Counted from the first letter of the stretch, positions 848 through 40,005 are shown. The stretch: 40,555 bases of DNA from Folioceros fuciformis (GCA_049999805.1 JBNGIO010006337.1:66902-107456); one strand, 5' to 3'. Translations and numbers: made by a program. Notes: a model not told the origin generated them from the letters alone.

Positions 848-1784
848 TCCGTCCGCCTGTCAAGATCCATCCTAGCAGCAGGCCGGCCCGCCTACCGGCA
901 TGGATCCTCAGCCCCGGCCACCTAGCCGAAGGCCAAGGCAGGCCAAGGCACCCTACCTCCATGCCTATGCCCAACCGCCTTCCGCACGCTCTTAGGCACC
1001 CTCACACACCCGACTTAGGGTTCCACACACGCCGACGTCCCTCTCCACGGGCACACCCTACCCCCTACTTCACATTTTCCACGGCCAGGGTTAGCTAGAC
1101 GATTGTTGTCTTTCTAAACTGCACCACCACTATCCTCTGATCATCCTATTTAATCTAGCCTTATCTAACATAGTTTCCTAATTACCTCTCCAAGGAATTC
1201 TATCAAAACTCCAAAAAAAACAAATACCACCCAATTTCTAAGAGGCCTATCTACCATGTGGTCTCCACACTTGGCTTTCCCTCAATTGCTGCTCTTGGCC
1301 TGGGCTTCTTTGAATTGTCGTTCTAACGTGGCATTCTCATCCTCCCAAACTATGTCATCCCTAAAGAGCCAACAAGATAGGCTTGACCTCCGAGAGTTCT
1401 TGCATGCATTTGTCTCGTTCTTCTTGGAGTTTACTGGACTCATCCTCAAGTTATAAGGTGAGGTCCATGGCCTGTTCCTTAAGTGATGTGAGCTGTTCTA
1501 CCAACTCTATCATATGTCGTTGGAGGGCTATGCTTTCACCCTCCTTGGTTGCGACTTGTCCGAAAGACCAAGCTAGTCCTTTGGCCACAAAGGTGACAAT
1601 CCCTTGGGTTGCCTTCATAGCTCCGTCCAAGGTAGCTCTTGTGTGGAACCAATAATTGTGCGGCAACTTCACCCTCCCAAAGGAAGTCCAGATGGCCCAC
1701 CTCATAGCCTCAGAATCTCTGATTCCTTTGTCACTCACGTTCTCCAGGATTACTGATCATGGTAGATTTTTCCTCTTATAAAGG

Positions 1785-1967
1785 ACCTCATTTGGGTTTT
1801 GGGTTTAGGGCAAGAGCTGGCACGACTTTGGTTGGGGGCGCACTGGGGGATTGAGGTCCCTTACCTTTCTTCCTCACCTCATTTGGGTTTTGGATTTAGG
1901 GTAAGAGCTAGCACGACTTCGGTTGGGGGCGCAATGGGGGGATTGAGGTCCCCTGGCTTTCTTCCTC
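1785..1967. repeat. Imperfect tandem duplication, unit about 91 bp, containing telomere-like TTTGGG/TTTAGGG words
   Basis: acctcatttgggttttgg(g/a)tttaggg(c/t)aagagct(g/a)gcacgactt...gattgaggtccc...ctttcttcctc at 1785-1875 and 1876-1967. Confidence 0.9.
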
Positions 1968-3231
1968 CTATGTGGTGAAGGTGGCCACTTCAACCCCATG
2001 GTCCGATTCTGTGCTTTTCATTGTAGTTGCTCATCTAACTAGACTAGTTTGGCCTGCTCCGCCTGCTCCCTGCTCATGGGGGGATCGATTGAGGCCAAGG
2101 TTTGGCTATGAGCAGATTATCTAGCTCCAGTCTAGGGGGTGGAGGGGCACTTTGAATTGATATCCTCTTAGGTGTTGGAATGGTGGGCCGAGTGCTCCAT
2201 CGTTTGAAAGCAAGGACGTTCTTGGCTGGCGCAACTGCTACCTTGCGTTTCTTGGCCGGTGGAGGGCTGGCAGGAGAACTCAGGGTGGATGCCTAGGCCA
2301 TCAAAGTGGACTTGTCTTGAGGAGCCTTGCTGGCCACTCCCTTCTCCGTGCTGTTGGAGATAAGGAGTGGGACATATCCAAATTGGAACAGGCCCAATTC
2401 CCACTACTCCATCAAGTTGCTGGTTGTCGTTATCCAAGGCATGAAGTTGGGGTATGCCAAAGTGAGGATTTGGTCCTCATTGATCTTCTTGGGGTTGCCG
2501 GTTTCAAGAAACTGCTCGGGAGTTGTATGAAAGTTGAAACAAAGAGAAGCAAAGAGGCTAGAAGGGAAGATGGGGAGAGTGCGGAAGCAAGAAGTTCAGC
2601 GTTAAGGGGGAGAAGCGAAATGGTGAAAGAGGAGTATCAAGGTTGTGGGGTAGTCGGAATGGCGGGGACAAGGAGAGGAGAGTAAAGGGTAGGGGTCGTA
2701 AAGCTCAACTTACTAAAGCATAAAAGTTTACATTGTCGTGTCTACAACTGTCTGAAGGTGGTTACGCTTGCTCTTCCTCATGATTGTCAGTATCTTAGAT
2801 ATCAATATGATTATAAGCCTGTCAAATTGCGCGTCGGACCACCAACTCCTACACTTTGTCAAACTCAACGAATCTGAAACTTAAACAAAATAAAAAAACG
2901 CAACAAAAAGAGAAATGAACAATCTAAGTCCGGCGAAAGGTCCGTCGGACGATTGGAGATGAACTTTGATTATTTGGCATCTTCAACTACCATGAAGTAC
3001 TTCCCTTAAAGGGTTCTACGTACACCCCTATCATTACCTCTCAACAAAGGGTTAATAAGATTCATGAAGTGCTCTTCTAAAATGAGTACTATCATCAAGT
3101 GCTTCCATACAAAAGTCTTACATATAGCCCTACTAAGGACTACTTCATGTGTCACCTAAGTATTTTCTTTGTAATTGCATGAATAAATGGTGGAGGCTTG
3201 AGAAATTTCTTGACCCTCAACGCTTAAAGTT

Positions 3232-3960
3232 TTAAAGCTTTTGTCGTCCACTACAAATCAGGAAGGGATAAAGTCGTTCCAAGGCCAATTTGAACTGAAA
3301 TGACTTCAAGGCTCCACTAATTACTACGCTTCCACTAGAATAAACATTGATATGCACTAACCTACCCCCCACAAACACTTTTTGACGAAGTCCGTTGAAT
3401 TGTTCTGGCTCAAGCTTTAGAGATACAAGCTGCCCTTCAATGTGGTTGGAAGTAGTTGAGTGTACACTTTGCAATCCTCTAAGACAATCGTTCAGTTGCG
3501 ATAAGTCCACCGTAAAGGGTAGATGACCACTGGCCACGCGATTGGTAACTCTGAATTTTTGCGCGGATGCCGTAGGGTAGCCTGCATCACGTACAAGCTG
3601 CCCAATGTCCTTTGCTGCACAATGTGCAAGACACACCCTACGAGCACCCATAAAGGTCACCTTCCCTGTTTTGTACAAGAACGCTGACAATCCCCATTGC
3701 TCACCCCAGGTGAGATTGCAACGGTTAAAGAAAGCACTGTTTTGGTGGTGCGCATTGGGGAGGACCTGGCTTAACCGCTTTACGTCTACAGCCACGCCCA
3801 ATTCCATCGTTGCACAAACATTTTGTTGCGAGAAGAGTTGAAGTACATTGGATAACGGAAAAAGCTGACTTGAGCATACTGCATATACATGAGGTTGGAG
3901 GTCCCTATGAACACCTTGGTCCACTATACTAAATGGCTCCTTGGATGTTGACTTAGCCAT
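3232..3960 (-). CDS. Highly divergent TATA-binding protein (TBP)-like protein, 242 aa, single coding exon
   Basis: Two TBP-fold repeats align by eye with canonical TBP. QQNVCATMELGVAVDV~LQNIVSTVNLDCKLDL; AFLYKTGKVTFMGAR~ALIFASGKMVCTGAK; AAKDIGQLVRDAGYP~AARKYARIVQKLGFP; FRVTNRVASGHLPFTVDL~FKIQNIVGSCDVKFPIRL; LEPEQFNGL~YEPELFPGL; INVYSSGSVVISGA~LIFVSGKIVITGA; ALERLYPFL~AFENIYPVL. The ORF is open from ATG to stop. Confidence 0.85.
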   Translation of the reverse strand: MAKSTSKEPFSIVDQGVHRDLQPHVYAVCSSQLFPLSNVLQLFSQQNVCATMELGVAVDVKRLSQVLPNAHHQNSAFFNRCNLTWGEQWGLSAFLYKTGKVTFMGARRVCLAHCAAKDIGQLVRDAGYPTASAQKFRVTNRVASGHLPFTVDLSQLNDCLRGLQSVHSTTSNHIEGQLVSLKLEPEQFNGLRQKVFVGGRLVHINVYSSGSVVISGALKSFQFKLALERLYPFLICSGRQKL

Positions 3961-4831
3961 ATTTGCTACAAAAAAAATAAAAAATAAATCCTCATATCCA
4001 ACACAACTACATACGTATCTATAGTCTAGGCGTACATATATAGTTTTTTTTATCTCGATATGTCTATGGATGAAATTATTTATTCCTCATTGTACCATTG
4101 TTCTATATAACTCTTTGGATACATTCTTTAGGTTGTAATATTATTGTATATAACCCTTTCAATACATTCTTTGGGTCGTAACATTATTCTATTCTTCAAG
4201 GGTGGGGCGACAAAGAGGAGCACATGGGCCAAGATTTACAAGTACACTCCTCTACAAGTTCGACACATCTTTATCCTCCTAGCCATTAAGGCATATGCAA
4301 GACATTTTCCAAGGTATGGAAGTTGAGCACCAAGGTAGTTTGGAAGAGAAAAAATTGGCTTGGTCTTCCTCTATCTTATGTTGTAGATTTCTTTTGTTAG
4401 AGAGTTTCTATCGCACTATAGTGAGCGTTGGCTAATGCCACATATAGGATGATGACAATAATAGAAAAGGATACAAGACGACAACAATGGCAAGAGAGCC
4501 GACGTCAAAAACATCAATGGTAGGTATACTCTACTTCTTCATCGACCAATGGCTTAGCAATTCTAGGGGCTAGCCCTTATAGCATGGTCACATTTGGTGA
4601 ATGTTGACTCAACCATGTCTCCTAAAAAACAAAACAACAAAAAACAAAATCACTATGCCTAGTACAACCTCCATATATAAATTTGAAGTTGAGGCATACA
4701 TATATAGTTTTTACATCTTAATACGTCTATGAATGAAAGATTTACAAGCACACCCCTCCTACACATTGGACACATCTTTATCCTCCTTGCCACTAAGACC
4801 CATGAGGCCACATACACGACGTTTTTCCAAG
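3944..4831. repeat. Degenerate tandem duplication of the TBP-like gene's start and upstream region
   Basis: Collinear similar blocks: about 3944-3967 vs 4600-4623 (ATG plus TAG acceptor); 4028-4074 (aggcgtacatatatagtttt...tctatggatgaa) vs 4692-4737 (aggcatacatatatagtttt...tctatgaatgaa); 4231-4312 (aagatttacaagtacac...gacacatctttatcctcct...ttttccaag) vs 4737-4831. Confidence 0.85.
4432..4616 (-). pseudogene. Probable internally deleted paralog of the TBP-like gene
   Basis: Starts ATGGTTGAGTCAACATTC (MVESTF) vs ATGGCTAAGTCAACATCC (MAKSTS), with the same 5-nt spacing from an upstream TAG. Then, across frameshifts, PLVDEEV~SIVDQGV and IDVFDVGSLAIVVVLYPFLLLS~INVYSSGSVVI...LYPFLICS. It sits inside the duplicated block. 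Confidence 0.55.
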
Positions 4832-4931
4832 TTATTGAAGACTTATGTTGAGTGGTTCTTGCATCTAGGCCATATGAAGAGTTCAGATAACAATACCAAC
4901 TCCCAATTCTCCGTTAAGCAAAACTAACACC

Positions 4932-6080
4932 TTATTGGAGCTTGCTGAAGAGGTTCTTTCTTGTTGCCACTCTCTCCTTGGGTGTGCCATCGGCTAGACC
5001 ACCTTTAGTTCTATAGAGGACCATGATTGTCCGTAGAGCCCCACTACATAACACAGCTTCTTCTCTGCTTGTTTCCTCCAAAAATCCCTTTACAATAATT
5101 GTTCGATAGAATAGGTTCCCACTTGCGTCGGCCGGCGATGACATGAACACTGCTTGATCTATGTTTGGAGAGGTAGCTTGCTCTTGTTGGTTAAAGTCTC
5201 TGGTCCTACAATCCATTGCAAATGCTTCCCACTCATTAGTGACAATTGATGTATGTTCTAACAGCGCTTGTCTCACCATATCATCCATCCCTTGGTGCAA
5301 CTACAAAAATAAAATTTGGCATGCTGAAGTGGGACATCAAACTCCTCATGTATCTTCTTTGGAACTTCTTTCCAACAAGACTCTGCCTTCTTCCACAAGT
5401 GCCCAAGCTAGATCAGCCCTTATCGACTGGCTGAGCCAAAAACTGGGAGTGATACACTTGAGGGATAAAATCTTCTGTTCATAGCTCCCTAGAGCCTTAT
5501 AGAGGAATACCAAGCACATTGTCCATGCTTAGAGGCTTTGCTGAAAGGAGGAAGGCTTTGACATCTAAGTAGCCGCTCCATATTGAAGTGAAGAGCAGCG
5601 AACAATCCTTGGTATCTAGCAAAGGCTTGTCGGCCAAAATGTTGTTCATCAACCTTTGTCCTTAAGGGATTGCTTGAGTTTGCTATAGGTGTGGGGTTAG
5701 CATGCTTTTCCAAGTGTATCCAGCTGGATCTGCAACCTTTAGAACCCATTGGGCACTTAAAGTTTAGAGTCTAAGATTAATGGCTTTGCAAGTTAACTAG
5801 AGGCAAACATATTTTCCAATCTCCCCATTCTCGTCTTCTTCTTGGAATGATAGTCCCAAATACTTATGAGGGGAGATTGGTTGGACCCGAATAATATGAT
5901 TGATGCAAGTGGTTGGCTCCCCCTTCATGTTAATGCATAACATCCTAGTCTTGCTCCTGCTTACTTTACATCCCAATAATTGACCAAAACTTGAACATGA
6001 AAGAGCAAAGCTTTTAGAGATGTCTCGGCTGCATATGAGAATAATATTTTATCATCATGGAAGGCTGATTCACGCAACTG
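4932..6080 (-). mobile_element. Decayed non-LTR retrotransposon (LINE) ORF2 fragment: end of RT plus post-RT region
   Basis: The minus strand gives SAFHDDKILFS (YADD-box-like, FHDD at 6051-6062). After a frameshift it reads FGQLLGCKVSRSKT (~FGxxSGLKVNxxKS) and PHKYLGL (KYLG at 5854-5865), then LSAQWV...YTWK and SLLFTSIW, typical L1-clade post-RT motifs. Multiple stops and frameshifts; the 3' boundary is approximate. Confidence 0.7.
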
Positions 6081-7242
6081 CTTGTATGGCTACAGCACAA
6101 GTAACCTATGCTTGACCTATGATGGATAAGAGTGTGCAATGCATTTGTGGAAAACAAAGTAACAACAGTGAGAATCCACAACAACTTGCTACAAAGTAAC
6201 AGCCTGGAGAATCCACATTAACTTGCATAGGAATAACCCAAATAAAACAAAATTTCCTAGTTCATTCGCCATGAGGGTCATGACATATGAAGAAGAGTGT
6301 GGCACGAGAGATGACTTTCCTCTTGCTAAGATCAATAGAGGAATGGAAAATGTGCTTACTGAAGGCATGTTGCATAGGTTGAGACAAAATGAGACTAATT
6401 TTTTCTATTCCCTCCTCTTATTGTAAATGACCAATTATTTGTTGCCTCGTCTTCATTTTTCTGCTCTCTACCAGGTTCTCTATAATGAGAACATACACTG
6501 GAAAACGTAGAACTCAGAGGATTAGTAGCACTGGTAACAGGTAATTCACCACTGGCACCGTATGCAGGTGGGTCCGCCCCTCCATTCGCCTATATCGGGG
6601 CGGATACGCTGCCATGACCGACAGTCTACTGCTTTAAGGGGTTCCGTGCATCCGAGGGTTCTTGCTACAGCAGGTGGAGAAGAAAGAGGCCTTGTGTGTT
6701 GTGTCGTCAGGACCATTATGGAAATTTAGACGCAAGCGAGCAAGGTTGAGGGAATTGTTGGAGGAGAGCAAGTATGGCCCGCTTACGTTCCCCAACTGCA
6801 CCGGCCCTGCAACTGGGTCCAGTAATACCAACCATATCATGGCTGCTCAACTCAACCACGAGCTGTGATGAGCTGACAGCGAGATAAATGCCGAATTTTC
6901 GAGTGACAATCGACGTGACGAAAGTGTGATCCATACATATACACCCATGGTACGTAATTGAAATGAGAAACAGCATGACCCAGCCTGTGTGTCAAACAAT
7001 CTCGCCACAGCTCGAAGGAGGTCCAGCAGTGCAGCTACTTGGCGAGTTAAGAATCCGGATTCCCCGAAGAAGAAAGGATCGTTAGTGCAGTAACTGCTGA
7101 AAAAACTCACCAGCTTGGACTGAATTCAAACACAGCAGTGTGGCAGAGCTACTGGCTAGATTTTAGTTCCTCCGAAATGTAACCAGGCACCCGGTGCTAG
7201 CTCAGTCTTTCCTTGCCCTCTTTGGAAGGAAGGCTGACTGGG

Positions 7243-7971
7243 TTAGTCATACGGATAGTCGACTAGCAGGTTCGAAAAGTCTTCGTGGGTTCTCGATCTT
7301 TCTAGCGCAGCAAGGCGGCAGATTACAGCACGGGCTGTTGAATACTTGCCCCACTTGACTACATCTTCCCGCTCAGGCCCGTCAGCTGTTGAAGCCTTTG
7401 TCAGACTATCCCACAAATAGCAGAATTGGAAAGCTGCATAAACAGATGCGGTTGGGACATGACTGCAGCCGCCTGACAAAAGAACATCGAGAAACAGCAA
7501 TCAGGAGCGGCCATGTCCATTCACCTTCACTCTTGCTGATGAATCCCCTGACAGTGCACAGAACTCGCCAAGGCCTGCCTGCCCGGGATACCTTTGCACC
7601 GCCTTTCAAAGCACCGTTCTGCTGCTTGAATCTATCCAGCAATGTGATATCGTCAAAGCTCTGAGAACCAGGGTGACTGAAAAAGGCCAGACACATCATC
7701 AGCGCGCAAAGGAGAAGCAGCACCTGCGAGGTAGGTCAGTTGTCACACCCTGAAGTGTGGTTTGCTTGTCACAGGAGAGCAGAAGGTACGCCACCCAGAT
7801 GTCCCCGTCACCATCCTCCAGATCCCTCTCCCCAATCCTCAAGGAGGCAGCCCCGGACTTGCCTGCCAAACTGACCTCAGACTTGGCCAGCATATGCCTG
7901 TCTGTATGCAGGTGCTGTAACCAGTCGAAATCGGATTCCACCCCATACAGATACAGGTCCTTGTACAACAC
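7243..7971 (-). CDS. SLX1-like GIY-YIG domain protein with catalytic substitutions; last three exons 7971-7724, 7631-7525, 7433-7243; 5' exons unresolved (possibly up to about 8374)
   Basis: Spliced translation via canonical GT-AG with consistent phases: ...IWVAYLLLSCDKQTTLQGVTTDLPR|RFKQQNGALKGGAKVSRAGRPWRVLCTVRGFISKSE|AFQFCYLW...DYPYD*. This matches the plant SLX1-like pattern WxVYLILS...TYVGxTTDFxRRLKQHNGExKGGAKASxAGRPW...GF...A..FE..W. Confidence 0.8.
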
Positions 7972-8602
7972 CTGGCTGCAAATCGCCTTGTTCACCAGCC
8001 TGCCCCATCCTCTTGAGGTCGAGTCACGAGAAGGCAGCCAAGCCGCTCTGCCCGGGAGCTGACACCCTGTGCAACGAGTCCACGACAATAACATCTCTGA
8101 GCAAGCATCCGAATCAGGACCGAATTCCCAGTTGCGCTACACCAACACAGGCAGCCGGAGCTCTCTAAATCCCTGACGAGTTCTCATTTTGTAAGCGCCC
8201 GAAGATGGAGCAGCTATCCCCGCATCGGTACAACATCAGTAGCGCACACTGTGGCCTAGCTACTGCAATGCCCCCGTCTCCTGCCAGCCAAGGTGAAAGC
8301 CTGCCTGCGATTTCGTGCTTCCAGCACATTGCAAGTTCATTCAGAAGCAGACGGAATCCAAGGGCGTTGTTCATGTACTGTCGGCTCGAAAAGGCTAATA
8401 GTGTGGATTCTGCGCTCGTCTTGGAAAGAAGCCGCGTGCATAAACACAGTGGCCACTCCCCAATTTTCAAATCAGATGGCAGCGAGCCCGAAATAATTGA
8501 CTCGTGCCTGTCCCGTGCTCGTCTCTCATGCGCAATTGGCATCCACAGTCGTCAATACGACAGAGCCCAGCTTGAGCATCTCCTGGAAGTAGAGAGGTTG
8601 CG

Positions 8603-11600
8603 ATGGAAACTGTGGGGCTGGGTCCTGGCGATGTTGCGGCTGCAGAGGAGCGTCTGGACGTGCTGACCAAAGCTGGGCTTCACACGGGTGCGTCCAAGCC
8701 ACGGTGCGAATTTCTGCCAAAGTTGTGATTTTGGGCTGTTGTGGGTTGTTTGCCCGTGTACAGGATTTCGCTGTAGGATGGTGATCCACGTTGATATGCT
8801 TCATTGTGGGTAATTCAGGAGCTTGGTCCACCAAGATGGCGATTACCACAGAGCAGTGCATGTTTGGATCTACGCTGAGAGCACCGGAGAGTTGCTGCTT
8901 CAGAAGCGGGCGGACAGCAAAGACTCGTGGCCTGGACTGTGGGATATATCCAGCGCTGGCCACATTTCCGCCGGAGACTCTTCCCTCATCACGGCACAGT
9001 AAGATGAGATGAGAAGCATGTCAAGTTGGAGTCTTTTGAGCATACGTGTGCCTTCTGATCCTTCGGCATGCAAGTTAACCACCAGTAGGTCTGTGTAGGA
9101 GGGAGCTGCAAGAGGAGCTTGGAGTGATCCTGCCACCTGATGCCTTTGAGCTACTCTTTCTCTATCTCCAAGAGTGGTAATTACCCATGTCATCAGCCGG
9201 ATTACGCCTTCCGTCTCAGCTCTAGGAGGGAGTGATGATGCCTGTCGTCTTCGGTGCAGTACTACTAATAATGGAGCTTTCATCAACAATGAGTATAACG
9301 ACGTCTATCTCATCACGACGGAGAAGCCAATCCCACTGGAAGCTTTCACCCTGCAGGTTTTTCCCTCGAACCTGTGGTTACATTGTATTGCCATGATTTT
9401 ATTTGCTCGGCACGTGAACTTGGATCTGTTCCAGGAGTCAGAGGTTTCTGCAGTGAAGTATATCGGCTGGAAGGAGTATGAAGATTTAGTTCGGAAGGAA
9501 GATCCTGCCTATGTTCCTGTTGAAGTGGATGGAGGCTATAGCCGCTTTTTCTCTGCCATCAGGAGCAGGTTAGACAGTCTTCTCTTTCCTACCAAGGACA
9601 AGAATACTCCCTGGTATCAACATTGATGGTTTCGTAACAAAAATGAACAAAGTGCCTGCTGAGTTTCAGCATCCTTGGAGAACTGCAGATATGAGGTCGA
9701 CAAGGAAGCCAGAATCTTGTCTCTCAAGACTCAGCTCAGTAGATACGTGCCTACCACGTTTGATTCACAGGTCGGTAAACTTTAATGGCAACTGGGGGTG
9801 CAGGGAACGTCTGCTATTCAACGTGTTCGTGCAATCAGCTTGCTGATTGAGGGGCTGCTCTCTGCTTATGGGAATAGTGTTTTTGAGTTTTCATTTTGAT
9901 TTATGTTTTTCTTTCCATTGTTTTATCCTGTTTTGCAGCTCGAACAGCTGAGAGATGGTGACCGTCTTGCTATACCTTTCATCATCCAAGCTGCTGGGGT
10001 GCTCGAAAGGATCTTTCTCGAGCAGGTCTGCAGTTGTCGGGACCTTATGCTCCTTCCCAATTTGATCGGCAGAGGAGCTAGCTGACGTCGAATCTGATGC
10101 AGGAGTGGGTCACAAACCCAGCACTGAAGACCTGGCTTGAGCTGAGGTCATCTGAGTCGGAGCTTGATGCGGTGAAGCTTGCTTATTACAAAATCAATAA
10201 GAGTCCGTGGTAAGCACTGATAAATCAGGCTGAGTTCACCTGGCGGATGTTTTGTATATCTCCTGATAGACCCGCCGGAACCGTTTCTGGAGCATCTTGA
10301 AGATTTTGATCATGATTTGGTACCACATAGCCTTATCGGAGTGCACTGGATGTCTTGTGATACAGGTCGCTCCTAGATGAGAACGAAGCCTTCTTGACCA
10401 CAGCGGATTCTGCTTTGGTCAGTGCTGAGAAGGCTGTGAACGCTGTACCTGGGTGGGAGGGTTTGAAATACAGGGCAGCATTCCCAGTCCAAAAGCCTCC
10501 GGGTGCAAATTTTTATCCTTCAGATATGGACAAAGCGGTAATGTGGCAATCAGTACTACATGGAAGGGCCTTCAGTTTCCCATATCTCTACGAGTCTGTT
10601 ATTCAAGTTTTTGTTGGATTGAGATTACTCACACCAATCAAACTTCAATTGCAACAGGAGTTTGAGATATGGAAGTCAAATTTGGAGCCTGAAGAGCAGG
10701 AAGCAGCTACTGGGTTCTTCACAACCATTAGACGAGCAAGTGACCCAACCCTGTACAACTTGAAGATCATTCCTTACCCTGTGGAATATGGTGCTTTGCT
10801 AACTCAAGCATCTAAATATCTGCATACAGCCGGAGATCTTGCGGAGACGCCCAGGTCTGGATATGAAACACAGAAAGAAATGTTCCTTGTATGTATGTAC
10901 TCACGAGAAGGGACTTAAGTGCTTTACTATGGTTTGGTTCTCAGTTTGAAGAAGTTGCTCAAGTCCAAGGCCGATGCATTTCTCTCAAATGACTACTATG
11001 ATTCGGACATTGCATGGATGGAGCTAGTAAGCACTTTATTTGGCTGAATAGGTTCTGACTTGGACAGCACCAGCTCGCTTGCCTGGCTAGCTGCGATATC
11101 GATCTACCTTATTCTCTTGGTCGCAGGACTCTCCAGTTGATGTCACAATTGGTCCCTATGAGACGTATGAAGATGCACTTTATGGATACAAGGTATGACC
11201 ATCTAGCAGATATTGTTTTTGTAATACTCCATTTGTAGCACAACACAATTTCAAAATTTGATGTCATGAGGTGTCTTCCTGCAGGCAACTTTTGAAGCTT
11301 TCATTGGGATACGGGATGAGGTAGCAACCTCGCAACTGAAGCTCTTTAGTGAACGCCTCCAGGTGAAAATCTGCTGCACATGCTTGGGAGATCACCATTG
11401 GAAAGGATTGTCGGCTAGATATTTGGAGTTGGGCACTTAATTTCAAGCCTGACAACTTGCACTGCTGACGTCCGTTCCTAACCATCGTTTCCATCGTGGA
11501 CAGGAGCTTGAAGATAATCTGCCCCTGGCTTCTCAGTACAAATCAAAGGGTGTCACCGCTTCCCCTATTCGTGTCATTCAGCTTCTTTACAATGCGGGGG

Positions 11601-13066
11601 TAAAATGACTTCGAAAGTCCTGCTTGCTGATGTATTCCGAGCAGCTTGCTTGGCACGCACTCCCGTGGAAACTCGGTAGCTGTTCTGTGCAGACGCCCAC
11701 TTGAAGTATCTGAATCAAGAGATCTGATGCAGTTCTGTTTGTTCTGCAGGATGTGAAGGGCCCACAAACTGTAGCATTCAACCTTCCAAATGATGAGCGC
11801 ATAGTGAATGAGCGTGGTAGTGCTATGGTCATGTTGAAGAATATGTCAAGGGCAAAGTATAAATCACACTTTATGCGGGTAGGAGGTCCGATTTCCCATC
11901 CCTAGTTCTGACACAGACTACGTTCGTGAATTTGCAGATTTGATCAGATTTTGAGGCCTATAGCGAAGGTCAGTGTGGGGGTTTCTCAACGGGAGTACGT
12001 GGACTTTGAGTCCTTTTTCACCCACACAATCTGCCATGAATGCTGTCATGGTATTGGGCCACACAGCATCGTTCTGCCCAGTGGGAAACAGTCAACCGTC
12101 CGGCTTGTGAGTTGATTTAGTTCATCTTAGTGCAGCATTATTGCTTCTGGGAAGCCCTCAACCATGATCTGGCGACATGAGGCAGGTGCATAGGACATGT
12201 CTGCTGACTCGCTCTGATCCGTGTTTGTTTGATACAGGAACTTCAGGAACTCTATTCGTCAATAGAGGAAGCCAAAGCCGACATAGTTGGTCTTTGGGCC
12301 CTGCATTATCTTCTGGATAGGGTATGTACTCTGCCCCATGTTGCCTCAAACCACGTTCAGGAGTCTTTGCTATTGCGGGTAACATCTCTATTCCTGCAGG
12401 GACTGATATCAGAAAACTTCGAAAAGCCCATGTACGTCTCCTTCCTTGCTGGGTGCTTTCGATCAATTCGATTTGGGCTGGAGGAGGCACACGGGTAAGC
12501 AGCTCCTCTTCTTGCATCCCAACTCTTAACTGCGCATAGGAAAGACGAGTAAGTGGATCTAATGCCCCTGCTGATTGGCCTGCAGGAAAGGGCAGGCAGT
12601 TCAGTTCAACTGGATTCTGGAAAAGGGGGGTTTTGTTGAAAACCCGGATGGGACATTTTCTGTTGATTTCGACAAGGTAAGCATGGAAAGTCGTCGAAGG
12701 TTAGCAGTAACAGCAGAGAGTTGTGATTGATGGTCTGGGTCGTATTCGACCTGGCTCCGTGCATACGCCCAGGTGAGAGGAGCGGTGGAGAGCCTCAGCA
12801 AAGAAATCCTGACCTTGCAAGCTCGAGGAGATAAATCAGCAGCCAAGTCACTGTTGGCCACCTATGGAGTTTTGACACCTCCATTACTTCGTTGTCTGAG
12901 TCAGCTGGAGAGTGTTCAGGTGTTGCACAATCTACCTTCGAACTTCTTCAGGACTCTGGAATTTTGTTCCTGTGGGTTAACAGCTAAGCTACCTTTTCGT
13001 TCTTGAATGCCACAGGTTCCAATCGACATCGCGCCTACATTTGAGGTCCTGCGTCAGATAGCGTAG
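8603..13066 (+). CDS. NUDT3: Nudix hydrolase 3 (Nudix-dipeptidyl peptidase III / peptidase M49 fusion), about 21 exons
   Basis: Exon 1 (8603-8703) gives METV...EERLDVLTKAGLHTGASKPR. Exon 2 gives DGDYHRAVHVWIY...DSWPGLWDISSAGHISAGD. Nudix box GHISAGDSSLITAQRELQEELGV; KPPGANFYPSDM; DVTIGPYETYED; GPQTVAFNLPNDER; zinc motif HECCHGIGP (12035-12049); EEAKAD; ends VPIDIAPTFEVLRQIA* (TAG 13064-13066). Confidence 0.95.
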
Positions 13067-13704
13067 GAGCTTAGGGACGTTCTGCATTTAGACATGGTTA
13101 ACCGTTGATGTAGTGCTTGACACTAATTCAACAAGCTGACTTTGAGTCAAACATCTGTGTCTTCTGACTAGCCAGTCTTCGCATGTGCATATGAAAACTG
13201 GATCCGGGGCAGTTGCTTTGTCGCCACCCTGTCCGTCGAAGTGCACATAGCATAGAAGAGGAAGGGTGGCGGAAGGATTGCTCTGCAAGAGGGTACAGGC
13301 AGTGCATAAATAAAGCAAGGAACAAATCCACATCTGTTCCTCATCATAACATTAAAAATATTGTTACAGCCTCTAAGCATCCTTGGCAAAGTCTGAATTG
13401 TGACCAAACTACGTCATTGTCATGGAGCCGACGCTCGCAAGACCATAACGTCCCTCCGAGGTCTGTACAATTAGAACTAAATTAAAAAAAATGTGGCACG
13501 ATCTGCCAGGTACTCTACATCGATCTTCTACCTATCCCATTCCTGAGGAACTCGATGCCTCTTACCTTCACGCCATGAGCTCTAGAAAATTGCTGGGGTA
13601 CGCTTCTGCAACACCCTCGACATAAGGCCCACCTATGAAGGAAAGCTAGGAAGCTGAAACTAGTGAAAGAATGGAATGAACACGCCCGACCCTGTCACTC
13701 TCCT

Positions 13705-15889
13705 CTAGGCTTTTGTGGTTCTCCTGTTGGGCTTGAAGACAAACTTGATCAAAGACTCTTTGATTCCAAGCAACTCTGGGAACTCCTTCTGGATCTTGGA
13801 TGTGTCCAATTCGTTGTTGCTGCGAGGAGCAACAATAACCTTGGCTTGCTCCTCAAGGGTGAAGTTGACGTACTTGAAAGAGGGATCGATGTACTCCTTG
13901 TACATCTCCAATATCTCATTGTGGCTCACCACACCAGGGTTGGTGAAGTTCCAGATCCCTGTGAGATTTCGCTTCGCCATCTCGATGGAAATAGGTAGAA
14001 GCTCGTCCAGGATGGTCATGCTGTTGGGGATGTTGACAACCTTCTCGTAGCGAGTAATCTTGGTGATGAAGTTGCGCGGATTCTTGAGGTCAGCTGTAAT
14101 GGGCATGCGCACACGCAGGGTGCACACGTTCTCATACTCGTTCAGAAGCTCTTCCACCTGCACAAAAAAAAAAAAAAACAACCACCACATCACTGGGTGC
14201 TTGACACCGTAGCACTAGGACACGAAAACACTCCCCCTCGGCTCTCTGGTGAATCAAAGGCAAAAAACCGAAAACTGAAGCACGCACCATGGCCTTGGTC
14301 TTGGAATAGAAGGAACCAGTGAAGTTAGGAGTGTCCTCTTCCTTGAAACCAATACCAGAACCCAGAGGATGGGCAGCATCGTACTCGAAGATACAACCGG
14401 TTGCAAAGTTGACGAGCAGGATCCCCTGCTCCCGACAGACATCAGCAAGGGTGATGGTGCCAACCACGTTGGCTCTGATGGTTTCCACCTTGTGAGTCTC
14501 GCACCAATCGACATTGGGGCGTCCTGTCACCCCCGCAGCGTTGAGGACATGGGTGGGCTTAACCGAAGCCAGATCGGCTTCCAAGGCAGCCCTGTTCTCC
14601 AACCTCCCGGTGCCGTACTCATAGGCGATGCCCTGCTTTTCGAGGAGTCCTCCCAGGAGGCCCCCGATCCAGCCAGTGCGGCCGTAAATCAAAAACTTGA
14701 GCGGCGTCTTGGCAGCAGGTTTGGGCGGAACCAGCATGCCAGTTCGAACCCCGTTGGCGACAACAGCATCGAGGCGGGCCTCCTTGGGCTTGCTGTTGCC
14801 GTCCTTGTCGGCATCCCCGTTGGCAGTGGTGAAGTCGGAAATCTTCTCCACCCCGGCCATGGTGAGCATGCGCGGGTGCGGCACGAGCGCCCCCGACACA
14901 TCGCCCCACCATTCCGGGTGGCTGGTGTACCAGTCCTTGGTCTTGCGCAGGCCCTCCTCCCAGGTGGTGCGCTCCTGCCAGCCCAGATCTTTGAGCTTGG
15001 CGTCGTCGAGGAAGTACCTCTGATCGTTGAAGGGGCGGTTGTCGACGAACTGGATGACCTGGTCGGCATCGGTGCCGAAGAGCTTGCAGATATCCCTGGC
15101 CACATCCAGCACCCGGCGCTCCTTCTTGGTGCCGATGTTGTAGACGTGGCCCACCACCCCCTTGTGCAGCACCACCTCGAAGGCCTCCGCCACATCCTCG
15201 CAGTAGAGGTAGCTCCGGACGTTGGAGCCGTCCCCGTGGATGGGCAGCGGCTTGCCCTGCATCGCGAGCAGGATGAACTTGGGAATGAGCTTCTCCGGAA
15301 ATTGGTTGGGCCCGTAGACGTTGTTGCCCCTGGTGGTGATGAAGGGCAGCCCGTAGGATCTGCCGTAGGCCATGACGAGCATCTCGGCCCCGGCCTTGGT
15401 GGCCGAGTAGGGGTTGGTGGGCAGCAGCTGCGAGGCCTCGTGGTTACCCACGATGGCGTCGGCCTCCGTCTCGCCATACACCTCGTCCGTGCTCACGTGG
15501 ATGAAGCGGCGGATGATGCCCGTCACCTTGCACGCCTCCAGCAGCACGTGGGTCCCGTAGATGTTGTTCTTGGTGAACTCGAAGGAGTTGCCGAAGGAGT
15601 TGTCGACGTGCGTCTGCGCCGCGAAGTGCATGATGGTGTCGATGCCCTCCGTGAGCAGCAGGTAGTTGACAAGATCCGCGCTGGCGATGTCCCCCTTGAC
15701 GAATTTCAGGTTCTTGGACGGCTTGCTGGGCAGCAGATTCTTGAGGTTGGAGCAGTAGTCCAGCTTGTCCAACACCACAACCTTGTAGTGCGGGTAATTC
15801 CGGATGAGCCGATTGGCAACATGGCTGGCGATGAAGCCCGCGGCTCCCGTGATGAGGATGTTCTTGGGCGTGTAAGTGGCGTTCTCCAT
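13705..15889 (-). CDS. RHM: Trifunctional UDP-glucose 4,6-dehydratase / 3,5-epimerase / 4-reductase (UDP-L-rhamnose synthase), 684 aa; exons 15889-14288 and 14157-13705
   Basis: N-domain ILITGAAGFIASH, HFAAQTHVDNSF, STDEVYG, YSATK. C-domain LIYGRTGWIGG, GRPNVDWCE, YSKTK, LRVRMPI, APRSNNELD. One phase-0 intron (KAM|VEE), GT at 14287 and AG at 14159-14158. Confidence 0.97.
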
Positions 15890-16050
15890 ACCTGCTGCTG
15901 CTGTACTACCTGCCTACCCTCCCTCCCTCCCTCGGATCTGTCCACCTCGCTTGCTCCCAGATCTGCGCAGAGATGCCGATCCCGCAATGCCACACCACAC
16001 CACACCACAACAGAGCAAGCTTCGCAAATCAGAGAAGCGTTGCGCCCACA

Positions 16051-17764: not shown

Positions 17765-23603
<5,839 letters not shown>

Positions 23604-24233: not shown

Positions 24234-24333
24234 NNNNNNNNNNNNNNNNNNNNNNNNNNNNNNNNNNNNNNNNNNNNNNNNNNNNNNNNNNNNNNNNNNN
24301 NNNNNNNNNNNNNNNNNNNNNNNNNNNNNNNNN
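24234..24333. other. Assembly gap (100 N)
   Basis: Run of exactly 100 N. Confidence 1.
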
Positions 24334-25402
24334 CCTATAAATAATTTTATACCAGTTTCGATTTTAACGACCAACCAAATGTGACCCCACCCAATTCTTT
24401 CTCTCTATCCTACAGCCCACCGGATGCTTCAGCTGCACGCTGTGAAACCTATGTAAAACTATATAACAGTTTCATGCCTTATTTTTCTCTATGGGATCTG
24501 TTTTTCTTTTCTGCATCATCTGATTTTTTTAATTAAAATATTTTATTACACCCAAATCCATTAAATATTAATTAATTTTATTAATTATTAAAATTGATGC
24601 AAGTATTAATATCATAATACTACAGCAACATGAGTTAAGGGCCAGGTGTTCACTAAAGCAGTTTATGTAAGCAATAATACTTGATTAAATAAAATACTAA
24701 TAATAATAATAAAATTCTATTACATTTATGAGATCTTTTGAGAAGAAAGGTCTTCAACACCACAAAGATGATCAATGCACCCAGAGTTGCGGATCAAAAT
24801 TTTAGGTACATAAATTTAATTTTTTTAAGGAATAATCTTGCTCTCAAGAGCGTGTACATAGTGATGTATATGATATATAATAATCCACACTAAATAACAA
24901 GCTGGAAAAGACGGAATGTGAAACGATATACATATGATAAAAGACGGAAGAAAAAACATCCAGAAAAAAGGGGTCCACTACGGCCTGGTCATGGTCTCTC
25001 CGAGTGTGTGGTCAAAGAACACATCTTGGCATGTATGTACAGACATACAGCGTATTGCAACGTGCGGTCGGGGAACTGCTTCGACGGGGAGGCTTCGACA
25101 TGTGACCTGCCGCCGGCACAAAGCAATTGACGACTCAGGCAATCATTGTACTGCTCAGGGTGGGTTGCTCGATCGCCCGCACCACACACATCGAGGGAGT
25201 TTTCAATGGGACGCGTGACCCAGGTGGAACCTCGGCGCTCACAGTGGGGGACCATGGAGAATCAGCGACCGCCTTTCCTACTTGGAAGAACGGCAGCAAA
25301 CAACCCTAAAGAGGCAAAACTTGGTGAGGAGCACTTTCCGATTGAATGTTACGAGCCATTTGACACGCCGGTACGGCTGTCCACAAGCATCAACATCAAC
25401 GG

Positions 25403-28400
25403 CTAGTTAAGGTCCAGCTGCTTCTTCAACACTTCGTACACCAGGAAAGAGATGGCAGCTGCTGGCACAAGTTTCAAGTAATTTGGAACAAGCCCTGCAC
25501 GGAGAAAAAGTTTCTGTCAATCCCAACATGCACAAACGTAAACAACAAACAAAACAGCTTTGCTGGTCATCGGTAGCCACCACGTGGCTAGTTGAGCTTA
25601 GTCCTATACGTCTTCTAGTCTTACGACACATGCCAATTCCCACGACAACGTACCCGCATACAGGGCTTGCAAACCCTCTTCCTTCACAATAACTTGGAAA
25701 GCATCGATCATATTTTTGTATAGTTTGGGACCCTGTCTTGCAGCTTGCACCTGATGTCGACAAATTGCAGCAACCCTGTGAGCGACGCAACCAAGGACAC
25801 TTGTAAAAGAGCCACAAGTTCTGACACCAACCTGCAACCGTCGTTGTACCATCTCAAGAGGGTAAACTGCTGTTTGGGCAGAGGCACCTGCAAGAGCCCT
25901 GAGAGGACAAGGGAGCGACTGTACGGTCAGATGCTGGTGTGAACCACGAGGCTGGGGCCGACTGTTGTTGAACAGGAACAAGTTTCAACAACAGACCAGG
26001 CTTACAACATTACCCGAACACCATGGTCGGGATAGCACCGAGGTCACCACCAGGACCGATCTTCTTCCTGTACCATTGCTTCAGTTGATCGTAGACAAAA
26101 AAGTTTATGGCACCATATGGAGCCACTCTAACCTGCAAGGATAACCGCGCTTAGGGTTTAGGCGTATACGTGCATTAGGACAGACAGCAAAACATCGTAG
26201 AGCCAGTGGTATACCATGTTGGGACCCAGACCCCTGTACAATCCCAACCAACTATCCCGCTGGATGATGTCACGAGTCACATCCACCAATGATCTTCCTG
26301 CCCGAGGCCCTTGTACTGTCACAACAGATCTCACTGTGTCCACAGGATGTGTCACAAAGGTTCCAGCCATTGATGCTATTGACCCGAGCAACATCCGCTC
26401 TGGGCCACTGATATCTACCCGTCCTGTTCTTTTCAGAATCCCGTCTTTGAGGTTGTCATATACAAAAAACTCGACGGCCTGTCTCCAACACATCAGGGTG
26501 TCAAGGTTTGCGGTTTACTGCCTCCCTGTTCCCTGATGTGCTTCATCCCACACAAAGGCATGTCTAGAACTGCTGACTAGCAGCGACAACCAGCGAAACA
26601 TACCTTGGTGGGTGCAATACGCAAAACATTCAATAGGTTGCCTCTAAAAAGACCAGGGAGACCCTCCTCCCTGCATGGGTCTGCCATTAGTGATATTTAG
26701 CAATAGGAGCATTGCCAACACACAGTGCAGCTTGGTATGCACATGGACGACTTACCGCCAGATCTTTTTCAGAACAGCGGTGAATCCTTGTCTGGCCAGA
26801 TCTGAGTCAACCATAGACATAACCTACAGGGGAGAGGAGAGCTCATGAATACTTTGCTACTCATGCTACAAACGCAAAACCACGAGAAACACAGCACAAC
26901 ACTTGCCTTGATCCTTTCAAGTGGGGCCACAGCCGTCCTTGATACTGCACCGGACATGCCTCCTGCAAAAAGATGCTTAAGAACCTGTACTTTAGGTCTT
27001 CTCTGTCCAACTCGTCCCTGCTTGTTGTATCTCCCTGTAACGTATACGAAAGCCAGTGAGCTCACAGTAAGGCACTCTGGCACATGATACCCAGCTTCAG
27101 AACACAACGCCTGACTTAGCTGTCTTATCAAATGGGTCAGAAAGGGCTGTACCGGACGACATTGGGAAAGTTGTGTCGGCATCCCCTAGATCAATAACAG
27201 CCCTCCCCCAGATTTCAAAAATATCTCTAAGATCTTTGGCAGTCGACAACATCAAGAAATCTCTGCAACATGATGACGTAATTCAATATCGGGATGAAAG
27301 TTTGTGTAAAATCTGAGAGATTCTGCTGAACATTCACACACAAACTCACGATGAGGACAAAGAGTTATCTCCACAAGCCAGAAGTCACCTCCGTGGAGTA
27401 CCTAAGAACTGTATTCAGTAACACACCGAAAATCTGATGTGGATGGTCTACAGTTCCACGTGCTCCAAGCAAACGCAGGTGCAGGAACTCCCAATCAGTG
27501 AATTCTAAGTACAAAGCACCTGAACTCAGCAAAATCGAAGGCCTTGGTTTGGCTGTAAAAATCCTGAGATCCAAGCATTCCACCCCTCACGTGCATCCGG
27601 TCGATCATCTTCTTTACATCCTTGTCGGCAATTCTACAGCAAGAGTAAGTCAGCTACTGGCCATCCAACTCATACACCACGGCCACAATAACAGAAGTGC
27701 AGAGTGCCTGTGCCCGATCAGGACAACCACAAGATGCGTAAGGCAGAGCCGAGGGATGTGGTTGAGAACAACGTCTACCTGAATTTGTACTTCCGCAGAG
27801 CTTCTTTCAGCTCAGCTTCGGTTATGTAGCCAATCTGTTCAAGAACAAGGCGGTATTACATCGGCGGCCGTATCATGACGAATCAAAACCGAGCATAACA
27901 TCACAAAAGCTGACGGTCACGTCACCTTTCTTTTGTCCAGTTCCTTGAACGTATTGAGAAGTTCATTTTCTCTGCTGATTGCGTACTCGGCAAACGTTTC
28001 GAAGGTGAGAGTGGCGCTCTTTGTTGTAGCAGCGACTTGATTGACGAAGGCTTCAACGTCCTGTGCATGACACGGAACCCAAGGTTAACCAAGACGACGA
28101 CACAATTAGTCACGAGCGACAAGAGCCTTCATCTCCCATGACATCCGCCGAAGGCAAACGCCTTCGGCACACTCAGCACGCGATCACCGTAACAGAAACG
28201 TGGCGATCAAGAAAAAACTTGCAAAAGCGAAAGGCAGCTATGAACCTCTTCAGAAGCAGGCAGGTTGAGCCGCTTTAACGCCACCTTCAGGTCACCCTCA
28301 GAAATGTAGCCCACGCCTTCTCTGTCCAGCTCCTACAATGCAAACTTGGAATGAGAAAGAAAGCAGGTTCATGCGAAAAGCGTCAAAGTCGCACAAAATC

Positions 28401-29224
28401 GAACTCAACGCGACTCTACAGAGCGACAAGACTTGCCTGCTCACCACACAGCAATCTCAAACACTGAGGTTAATCTCAAACACCTTTCCTCCCTGCATCT
28501 AGTTAGTGACTAGTTGCTTCCCTGACTGAAATTCCGGTCAGCTGACCGCACAATCCCCTCCACACCGCACAAAACCCGCCACAGGAATCGGCTTGCTATG
28601 AACTCCCGGAGCATTCCAACAGGAATCCAGAAAATCTAACACCACGAACACCCAGCAATCCAAACCTAACCGAAACAGGCCTCCCCCTGCAAGCTGCTGA
28701 CCTTCCAGCGGCGCTGAAGCGCATCATACGCATACGTTCNNNNNNNNNNNNNNNNNNNNNNNNNNNNNNNNNNNNNNNNNNNNNNNNNNNNNNNNNNNNN
28801 NNNNNNNNNNNNNNNNNNNNNNNNNNNNNNNNNNNNNNNGAGCATAAGACACCATGGCCACCCTGCTCGGACCAAAGCCAGAATTTCCCCTCCGGACCCG
28901 CATCCCAGGCGCGGCCAGGCTCTCCACCGGGTCGCACACAAGCATCCCGGCGTCCTCCAAATCTCCATCCTTCGGCTCGGCCCAGGGCCCGGTTCGCCTC
29001 TTCCCCGCGTCCCGCCCCTGCAGCTCGGCGAACACGGCCCCGATTCCACCCACAACAGCATTCTGGCATTCGAGGAGCGCGTGCTGGAGCTGGTGCAAGG
29101 GATCCCGGTTCGCCCCAGCCTTGCTATGGAAGGTGCTGGGAATTCGAGCAGCGGTGCCGGATTCGCTCAGGCGGGGGAAGCGAATGCGCAAGCCCCCGGC
29201 ATCCGCATCCTGGAGGCGTGCCAT
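25403..29224 (-). CDS. Mitochondrial carrier family (SLC25) protein with N-terminal EF-hand region; carrier domain resembles Brittle1/BTL adenine nucleotide carriers; 5' exon structure uncertain because it spans a gap
   Basis: EF-hand-like exons: ELDREGVGYISEGDLKVALKRLNLP, ENELLNTFKELDKRK|IGYITEAELKEAL, FDFAEFR|DFLML...IFEIW...IDLGD. Three carrier repeats with Px[DE]xx[KR]-type motifs: APLERIK, HPVDTVRS, YPLEMVQRR. Also GLFRGNLLNVLRIAPTKAVEFFVYD and LVPNYLKLVPAAAISFLVYEVLKKQLDLN* (stop 25403-25405). ATG 29224 is tentative. Confidence 0.88.
28740..28839. other. Assembly gap (100 N) inside the carrier gene's 5' region
   Basis: Run of exactly 100 N. Confidence 1.
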
Positions 29225-29398
29225 GAGTGCAATGCCCGTCTACCTACTCCGGCAATGCGAGGCCGGGAGCCCTCTCCCGCGTCCAGGCAGCCGGGAGCAG
29301 TCAGAGCAGAGCAGAGCAACACTTGGAGGCAGCAGCAACAGCTCCAGGCGTCGGTAGCCAGGGAGTCTGGGGCGCTGGTCTTCGCCTCCTCCGGCCCC

Positions 29399-29498
29399 NN
29401 NNNNNNNNNNNNNNNNNNNNNNNNNNNNNNNNNNNNNNNNNNNNNNNNNNNNNNNNNNNNNNNNNNNNNNNNNNNNNNNNNNNNNNNNNNNNNNNNNN
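29399..29498. other. Assembly gap (100 N), flanked by C-rich sequence
   Basis: Run of exactly 100 N. Confidence 1.
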
Positions 29499-39100: not shown

Positions 39101-40005
39101 TGTGGCAAAGGCTAACGAAACAGTCCAGAGGATCTACCACAGTGTCTGCCGCACCTTCCGCGCCGCGATCTCCTGCACAGTCGTCAAGGAAAGCCAAAGT
39201 CCTTCAGACGCCATCTGCAAAGCCTGAGCGCAGGGGATCGCAAGAGGAATGCGTGAACACACCAGCCGACTTCTCTACGGAGCAGGAGTTCAGAACGCCG
39301 ACTGTGCTTTTCTCTCCTCCTCCAACAGCCCGGGTTACTCGCGATTACTTGAAGCCAGTGGTTACTCAATTGCGTTCACAGCTGGATAGCAGCCCTGCTC
39401 TCAAGAAGTACTCCGATCTGCTGAAGGATCTCGACGCCTTGGAGATGGAAAGGCGACAGCTGCCAAAAATTTCCACGAAGACACTCTTTGGCATCAGCCC
39501 CCGGGACTCAGGCTGTGTGAAGCGGGCTATTGAGCAGACCAACAGCCATCCCTTCAGAAGTTCCGAGAGCCAGCCAATTGCTTTTGAACTGAGTGAGCTG
39601 GATTCAATAGCTCTGAGCCAGAACCTGGAGAGCCTGGCAGGCCAGCTTGCTGTCAACGTCTCCAGCGAATGGAGCCGAAGTGGAGGAGGTGAAGCCATGA
39701 ACAGAGATGACACAATGCAGGGCCTGCTAGTTGGTTGCCTGGAGACGTACGCCAGAGAGGGCAGGTGGGAGAACGGCGCCCTGATGCAACATCTGAAGGA
39801 AGATCTTCTCGCAAGTTATGCGAAGGAAAGGAGTGGGCTCCACATGTCCGAAGACGGTGTCTTTGGAGAGCAGCAGCCTGAGGATGCATCACGAAAATCG
39901 GAGCTGGAAACACTGTGGCTCCTTGTTGACAGGCTTGACAAGGAAAGGCGAGATTCTGTTTATGAGATGCTCAGCCGACAGCTCTCCGTGATTCAGCAGG
40001 ACTAA
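36131..40005 (+). CDS. Large Ser/Pro-rich, mostly disordered plant protein, 1197 aa; exons 36131-36608, 36763-36825, 36953-40005; probable 5'-UTR intron at about 35807-36070
   Basis: Phase-consistent GT-AG splicing (478+63+3053 nt) onto the 1029-codon ORF. Conserved-looking islands: VWSNPTF, coiled coil IEEEIANEIRVLSEKLAEL, GRIVSAKF, RRGLSLG, RTVASRY, LPKI...SPRDSGCVKR. From memory these resemble an uncharacterised land-plant family; unverified. Confidence 0.8.

Follow-up and report, generated by a model that had tools for sequence, protein, structure and literature searches.

Few known proteins are as conserved as the TATA-binding proteins (TBPs) of land plants, and TBP cores are usually 60–80% alike across eukaryotes. 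Here we describe a TBP-like gene whose product, P0001, is only 24–28% identical to canonical TBP; it lies in a 40,555-nt stretch of Folioceros fuciformis DNA (JBNGIO010006337.1:66902-107456, assembly GCA_049999805.1), the whole of which was analysed and is referred to below as the window. The plant paralogues TBP1 and TBP2 differ by ~10% (PMC10005294, in excerpt), and TBP-related factors with separate promoter programmes are described mainly from animals and from some protists (PMC4180970, in excerpt). Keyword searches of the open-access literature returned no report of a comparable land-plant gene. We read the gene, tentatively and with slightly less than even confidence, as a lineage-restricted TBP-related factor in which the stirrup that serves TFIIB is kept and the DNA-kinking and TFIIA surfaces are altered.

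The closest functional analogy is with the animal factor TRF2 (TLF/TBPL1), a fast-evolving, bilaterian-only TBP paralogue in which the TFIIA and TFIIB sites are generally kept, wedge Phe (with changes at three particular Phe) and the Leu208 position are altered, and which is thought to run a separate, TATA-less promoter programme (PMC4180970, in excerpt). P0001, too, is fast-evolving and differs at wedge Phe and at the Leu208 position (Phe94 in P0001). We nevertheless do not assign it to TRF2/TBPL1: it has changes at two Phe instead of three, to different residues (both to Tyr), it lacks a conserved TFIIA-side stirrup, its host is a land plant and not a bilaterian, and there is no sign of orthology. 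Some wedge Phe have also been lost, independently, in TRF4 of Trypanosoma brucei and in the dinoflagellate TBP-like factor, where the loss is tied to TATA-less promoters (PMC4180970, in excerpt). P0001 shares with these divergent protist TBPs the partial loss of wedge Phe; they, however, are the sole TBP of their organism, whereas the P0001 gene presumably stands beside a canonical TBP gene. In comparison with canonical eukaryotic TBP itself (e.g., that of A. thaliana, PDB 1vok), P0001 has in common a predicted two-repeat saddle, a short N-terminal tail, one Asn per repeat, the first wedge Phe, an E-P-E stirrup and a basic core, and it departs from canonical TBP in the Tyr at the second wedge position, the Thr-less xTGAK motifs, a remodelled first stirrup, a 17-residue insertion in repeat 2 and the absence of introns.

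The gene, the parts of its product and a motif upstream of it are, in window coordinates:

3232..3960, minus strand: TBP-like gene, an intact intron-less open reading frame (ORF) with an ATG start, coding for P0001 (242 residues, then a TAA stop)
3562..3831, minus strand: TBP repeat 1, residues 44–133, with N47, F77, Y96 in place of Phe, FMGAR and the first stirrup TWGEQWG (alignments; secondary structure of the model)
3250..3561, minus strand: TBP repeat 2, residues 134–237, with N140, the LEPEQF stirrup (E184, E186, F188), Y207 in place of Phe, and ISGAL (Pfam; alignments)
3415..3501, minus strand: the insertion-bearing stretch of repeat 2, residues 154–182, with 7 + 10 inserted residues (gaps in HMMER and BLASTP)
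4035..4042, minus strand: TATATAT motif ~75–80 nt 5′ of the ATG, a possible core promoter (by eye)

The stop-to-stop frame reaches 4086, and the part upstream of the ATG holds no in-frame ATG, GTG or TTG; over the same stretch, the five remaining frames are open for 50–86 codons only. The ATG stands in the context gcaaatATGGCT, with A at −3 and G at +4 (read from the sequence). A first-pass annotation of the window had described a clean 242-residue ORF with both TBP repeats, without introns among spliced neighbors, and extremely divergent; it had proposed a HMMER comparison with the Pfam TBP family, a structural check of the saddle fold, and a check of the linkage to a gene that it named NUDT3. 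The ORF scan agrees with the first of these descriptions and the RNA contigs with the second, since they show GT..AG joints in the NUDT3-like gene; the rest is taken up below.

Against Pfam TBP (PF00352), P0001 scores 59.6 bits (E 2.8e-16; gathering cut-off 22.9 bits) in two stretches, so that both repeats are matched. A phmmer search against the sequences of the PDB gives 39 distinct matches at E ≤ 10, the top 35 of which are TBPs or TBP fusion constructs, with a best E of 1.1e-8 and the majority aligning across residues 45–234 of the query. It is over these same residues that the solved human, Arabidopsis, yeast and archaeal TBPs align, at E 1e-8 to 9e-5.

The alignments also bear out the list of kept and changed residues in the first-pass annotation. 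The minor-groove Asn of each repeat is kept (N47 and N140, in columns that are 95–96% Asn among the homologues), as is the first wedge Phe of each repeat (F77 and F188); at the second wedge Phe, however, P0001 has Tyr in both repeats (Y96 and Y207), so that two of the four Phe of canonical TBP are present. Tyr occurs naturally at these positions, in 7/76 and 5/76 homologues. The Thr of the xTGAK motif is replaced in both repeats (FMGAR, ISGAL), and the segment NAEYNPKRF of TBP has become NAHHQNSAFF. In TBP, the N-terminal stirrup and the basic helix 2 serve TFIIA; both are rebuilt in P0001, RIREPxTT being replaced by TWGEQWGLS and KSExxxxxAARKYAR by RRVCLAHCAAKDIGQ. The pair of Glu in the C-terminal stirrup is intact in sequence (E184-P185-E186), and from it TFIIB binding is predicted: A. 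thaliana TBP2 contacts TFIIB chiefly through the equivalent residues, E144 and E146 (PMC10005294, in excerpt). The core of P0001 is nearly as basic as that of its homologues (isoelectric point, pI, 9.5 compared with a median of 9.75 for the 76). The insertion in repeat 2, previously put at about 20 residues, comes to 17 (7 + 10).

From the single sequence, AlphaFold2 (AF2) gives no usable fold (predicted local distance difference test score, pLDDT, 35.7). With a 77-row alignment of P0001 and its 76 homologues, the model reaches a pLDDT of 87.6 and a predicted template modelling (TM) score of 0.79, with strands and helices in the expected order. Its best Foldseek match in the PDB is A. thaliana TBP (1vok_B; E 5.8e-15, TM score 0.85 on the target), and solved TBPs as a group match with TM scores of 0.85–0.89 on the target. 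The structural check thus returns a modelled TBP saddle, one that leans on the TBP alignment from which it was built. In the model, the insertion lengthens helix H1′ (helix 153–167) and adds a loop ahead of the stirrup strand; block pLDDT is 77–94 across residues 151–190, with the minimum of 77 at 171–180.

P0001 is distant from every protein in the databases searched. Among 1.84 billion representative proteins, phmmer finds 119 matches at E ≤ 0.001, the best of them at E 2.9e-10 and without a self match; no match reaches E ≤ 1e-10. The top match is a Penstemon gene model that holds two tandem canonical plant TBP cores, and we rejected it as a special relative. In a word-index protein search none of 333 candidates scored, a PHROGs search gave a chance-level match only (E 0.24), and tblastn against the window finds nothing but P0001 itself below E 1. 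Within the homologue set, 76 two-repeat TBPs aligned with P0001, the members are 29–82% identical to plant TBP, P0001 is 24% identical to it, and the identity of P0001 to any of the 76 is at most 32%. Its end branch is the longest in the trees, at 3.0 substitutions per column in the 77-row quick tree and 3.5–4.7 in three careful trees of 30–32 rows. P0001 is thus an orphan, with no close relative in any database searched, and the earlier description of it as extremely divergent stands.

This divergence is not evenly spread. P0001 keeps the consensus residue in 32 of the 56 columns in which at least 70% of the homologues agree, and it is identical to canonical TBP in 31/55 conserved core columns compared with 16/115 variable ones (Fisher p 2.6e-8): conserved core columns are retained four times as often as variable ones. 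Neutral decay hits conserved and variable columns alike, so the unequal retention points to divergence under coding constraint and not to a decaying retrocopy. Furthermore, the 242-codon frame remains open despite 3–4.7 substitutions per site on its branch. In a simulation of 5000 copies of the ORF, with indels excluded, 1% were still free of stops after 138 random substitutions; together with the retention of conserved columns, this makes it very unlikely that the ORF is a retrocopy of the host TBP in neutral decay. Judged from its sequence, most of the divergence of P0001 arose under selection for a folded TBP-like protein, either in the Folioceros genome or in a donor.

The gene belongs to the host genome. 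Two contigs of DNA run X1 (1955-4696 and 4668-13073) and one of DNA run X2 (3387-5160) have 0 differences from the window, and these overlapping, error-free contigs tie the TBP-like ORF to the NUDT3-like gene, as the linkage check had asked, over 1955-13073. Depth on the ORF is 10.8 in X1 and 8.9–10.2 in X2, compared with 11.7 (NUDT3-like gene) in X1 and 7.3–9.1 in X2 for host genes; the bins on the ORF show no extra contig depth at ≥80% likeness. The two runs come from one sample and are possibly the source of the assembly. The TBP-like ORF is therefore host DNA, single copy at ≥80% identity, and not a contaminant. The neighboring genes that place it are:

8421..13000, plus strand: spliced NUDT3-like gene, expressed as judged by an RNA contig (record 24) with GT..AG joints; 3′ end approximate
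14132..15913, minus strand: first large exon of a rhamnose-synthase (RHM) gene (Pfam; 82–88% identity to bryophyte and lycophyte RHM)

Four exon ORFs of the NUDT3-like gene have no Pfam match, and the name NUDT3 is the label of the first-pass annotation. The similarity of the RHM exon identifies the host as a land plant; with SAP, Surp and mitochondrial-carrier exons found by Pfam elsewhere in the window, the window is ordinary plant gene space. Taken together, a land-plant genome carries a single intact, intron-less TBP-like gene that may be an extra promoter-recognition factor, its use by the plant being putative.

As for where the gene came from, the first-pass annotation had noted a likeness to archaeal TBP, and this holds for two motifs only: P0001 has the EPEQF and VASGxL states, EPEQF occurring in 8/76 homologues, at least three of which pass the cut-offs of the NCBIfam archaeal TBP models. 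As a whole protein, P0001 reaches at best 54.5 bits against these models (NF001592-NF001601), whose cut-offs are 181–347, whereas the controls P0005, P0116 and P0060 pass. A profile of four archaeal-type sequences scores P0001 at 75.6 bits and one of 24 canonical eukaryotic rows at 71.9, with subsamples at 56–74. In the careful trees, the starred archaeal-type clade leaves P0001 outside; in the approximately unbiased (AU) test, which rejects neither placement, grouping it with that clade has p 0.32 and placing it as sister to plant TBP has p 0.09, at a cost of 14.4 log-likelihood units (lnL). A pairing of P0001 with P0007 (support 82/73) was set aside as possible long-branch attraction; without P0007, P0001 joins between the archaeal-type and eukaryotic groups. 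That the protein is encoded on a plant chromosome is a further difference from archaeal TBP.

A link to giant viruses, also raised earlier, finds no positive evidence here. The TBPs of Nucleocytoviricota (e.g., those of Heterosigma akashiwo virus 01 A0A1C9C511, Terrestrivirus, EsV-1-53 and the asfarvirus B263R homologue) share with P0001 a stand-alone, very divergent TBP fold of ~190–300 residues and match its model in Foldseek at E 7e-12 to 3e-8. In identity, however, they are the least similar: in structural alignments, the giant-virus TBPs of the viral structure set BFVD are 8–16% identical to P0001, cellular TBPs 20–25%. In the ESM Atlas, P0001 falls nearest to a TBP cluster with 55 members, 76% of them viral and mostly Nucleocytoviricota, which scores 0.96 compared with 0.95 for two other clusters. 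No confirmed relative was found in viral contigs, including IMG/VR, scanned with P0001 and with alignment A1, or in metagenome contigs scanned with P0001; the tree neighbor P0007 drew no relative from viral or metagenome contigs either. Pfam, which could miss decayed genes, finds no viral domain in any of the 39 distinct window ORFs tested, and the locus does not show the clustered virus-like genes of an endogenous giant virus. Codon composition gives no foreign mark: GC content at third codon positions (GC3) is 0.43 in the TBP-like ORF and 0.47–0.53 in five other host coding stretches, close enough that we dropped low GC3 as a foreign sign, the contrast with RHM (0.43 compared with 0.84) disappearing against these five. 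As for a retrogene, the ORF is intron-less, no poly(A) is seen downstream by eye, and plant TBP as sister has the AU p of 0.09 given above. A viral source or a very fast-evolving retrocopy of plant TBP may each account for the gene, and the tests favor neither.

The DNA 5′ of the gene is repeated, and three features describe it:

3942..4322, unstranded: copy 1 of a 245–380-bp repeat, covering the first ORF codons, the 5′ leader and the upstream region
4598..4840, unstranded: copy 2 of this repeat, 70–75% identical to copy 1, with several indels
4003..6003, unstranded: moderately repeated DNA 5′ of the TBP-like gene (contig depth 37–74 compared with ~11 for unique DNA)

Copy 1 holds a 43-bp tandem array (4090-4192) and a TATA-like block; the TATATAT block is the best-kept portion of the repeat unit upstream of the ORF. 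In copy 2, ~640 bp from copy 1, an ATG and a few codons are kept ahead of a stop. A joint origin of both copies at this site, by tandem duplication or as terminal repeats, would mean that the ORF has stayed open over ~0.15–0.19 substitutions per site and would argue for selection in the host; this clock argument falls if the copies were inserted separately as members of a dispersed family, as the extra depth allows. The copies may be the terminal repeats of a long terminal repeat (LTR) element or a terminal-repeat retrotransposon in miniature (TRIM), but by eye neither a primer-binding site nor a polypurine tract adjoins them, and we do not adopt this reading. The first-pass annotation had placed the gene in an island rich in transposable elements, amid decayed sequence. 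This finds no confirmation here: 0/39 ORFs tested have a transposon or viral Pfam domain, although decayed genes could escape Pfam, and only repeated DNA is evident by depth (~4003-6003 and 1-1334). Within the moderately repeated DNA, an 83-codon frame at 5800-6048 on the minus strand (containing RVQPISPHKYLGLSF) recalls, by eye, the end of a reverse transcriptase of the long interspersed nuclear element (LINE) type; it has no Pfam match at E ≤ 0.1 and is unconfirmed.

If the gene is a TBP-related factor in use, we propose that the basic two-repeat saddle of P0001 would sit on DNA via the minor groove, since P0001 retains the paired Asn and two of the four wedge Phe. Tyr at the remaining two wedge positions should make it kink DNA and prefer sequences differently from TATA-bound TBP, and the replaced Thr of the xTGAK motifs together with the wedge changes likewise suggests altered bending and sequence preference. 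The C-terminal stirrup E184-P185-E186 would recruit TFIIB or a plant TFIIB-related protein; TBP-like contact with TFIIA would be lost with the rebuilt N-terminal stirrup and the less basic helix 2. P0001 would then seed a variant pre-initiation complex, or compete for one, at a limited number of promoters, probably only in some tissue or at some stage of the life cycle. Binding to DNA, partnership with TFIIB, loss of TFIIA contact, restricted expression and a present function in the host are all inferred. A bolder version, which we consider unlikely, would make P0001 a second “system factor” of TBP type and the first land-plant TRF-like factor: not descended from the host TBP but taken from a deep-branching or viral donor, domesticated, and working with a plant-specific TFIIB-related partner in a TATA-less, TFIIA-free, stage-specific programme (e.g., in gametangia or the sporophyte). 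The plant TFIIB family is expanded, pBRP2 being an example (PMC3044737, in excerpt), and P0001 is a candidate partner for it. If our reading is right, evolution has kept the TBP fold and TFIIB stirrup in P0001 and rebuilt its kinking and TFIIA surfaces, a natural experiment in how core promoters are recognized.

Several points weigh against a factor in use by the plant. The TFIIA and DNA-contact roles that we give to parts of P0001 are in part presumed from general structural knowledge; the AF2 alignment consists of canonical TBPs, so the fold model and the sequence match are not separate lines of evidence; no orthologue or paralogue of the gene is known from which selection in the host (the ratio of nonsynonymous to synonymous substitution rates, dN/dS) could be read; and the repeated DNA on its 5′ side means that the ATG may sit in repeat-derived sequence. 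There is also a hint of methylation. Run X3 looks bisulfite-converted, with 656 G>A and 170 C>T among the listed changes. Its contig on 3542-3989 has 70 changes compared with 98 G in the stretch, the 28 unchanged G being about the number of CG and CHG sites (14 + 15), whereas three contigs at 17837-19461, in the region of a SAP-domain gene, are changed at 78/78, 32/32 and 99/99 G. This hints that the ORF carries transposon-like methylation and the nearby gene does not, with the qualifications that the counts are per contig, not per position, and that fully converted contigs of the ORF stretch would fall under the 80% likeness threshold. Across the gene-poor stretch 1496-6553, which holds the ORF, conversion in X3 is partial only. 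In the moss studied by Maumus et al., genes are almost unmethylated, whereas heavy methylation and silence mark repeats and regions of giant-virus type (PMC4083422, in excerpt). In an RNA-like contig set (X4, 48.6 million letters), 1335-4669 is bare of contigs and the neighbors are covered, which weighs neither way.

It is a doubtful but quite real possibility that the ORF is a silent foreign relic, brought in by an unknown virus or mobile element with an already divergent TBP, intact because it is young or by luck, methylated and without function. The methylation hint and the moss precedent fit this, as do the lack of introns, a best match of only E 2.9e-10 among 1.84 billion representatives, the position outside the canonical eukaryotic crown in the trees (with the 14.4 lnL cost of a plant-TBP sister) and, by a slight margin, the largely viral ESM Atlas cluster. 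Yet the viral TBPs are the least similar of all, the four viral and metagenome contig scans with P0001 or alignment A1 are blank, none of the 39 window ORFs tested has a viral or transposon domain, GC3 is near that of host genes, and “TATA” is absent as a word from the main text of PMC4083422. The ORF is, moreover, the sole open frame within a gene-poor stretch of ~7 kb, suggesting retention, and its insertion is old if the repeat copies diverged in place. Should it be such a relic, the ORF records a donor, viral or other, that is unmatched in those 1.84 billion representatives.

A dominant-negative decoy, expressed, with the TFIIB stirrup kept and without productive DNA bending, would titrate TFIIB-family factors or block promoters. 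We hold this to be improbable: P0001 retains the stirrup Glu but differs from TBP at two wedge Phe, at the Thr of both xTGAK motifs and in the first stirrup, and in TRF2 the alteration of wedge Phe accompanies loss of TATA binding (PMC4180970, in excerpt), but the paired Asn, two Phe and the basic saddle (pI 9.5) are kept and Tyr is a conservative, naturally occurring replacement, all of which fits better with retained DNA binding. That the ORF is a decaying processed pseudogene of the host's canonical TBP is very improbable and close to refuted. It is intron-less and single copy, and the AU test leaves plant TBP as sister formally unrejected (p 0.09); an identity of 24% to plant TBP, however, is far from the ~10% by which plant TBPs differ (PMC10005294, in excerpt), a neutral copy should be full of stops and frameshifts (1% open after 138 substitutions), retention is four times higher in conserved than in variable columns, and no poly(A) tract is seen downstream by eye. 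A contaminant or an assembly mis-join is scarcely credible: the gene has no relatives and the window has three 100-N gaps, but all of these are distant (24234-29498), and error-free contigs of two DNA runs, albeit of one sample, span 1955-13073 at host depth. The lineage-restricted TBP-related factor is thus the reading that we retain.

Further features of the window concern other sequences. The stretch 1-1334 is GC-rich (66%), with short direct repeats and a DNA depth of 100–700 compared with ~11 for unique DNA, and is thus highly repeated; the element also occurs in RNA-like contigs and is apparently transcribed, and Rfam has no match to it or to any other part of the window. The three scaffold gaps lie at 24234-24333, 28740-28839 and 29399-29498. 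On the plus strand, 36889-40005 is a frame of 1038 codons, rich in Ser, Ala and Gly, with a GC3 of 0.53 and no Pfam match, probably a large and mostly disordered host exon. The RHM exon (14132-15913, minus strand) has a GC3 of 0.84 compared with 0.47–0.53 in the other coding stretches of the window, a strong codon bias of one gene. Finally, RNA contig record 24 (4868 nt, 8421-15581) crosses from the plus-strand exons of the NUDT3-like gene into the minus-strand RHM gene, so that the tails of these two convergent genes seem to overlap, one contig being no proof of a single transcript.

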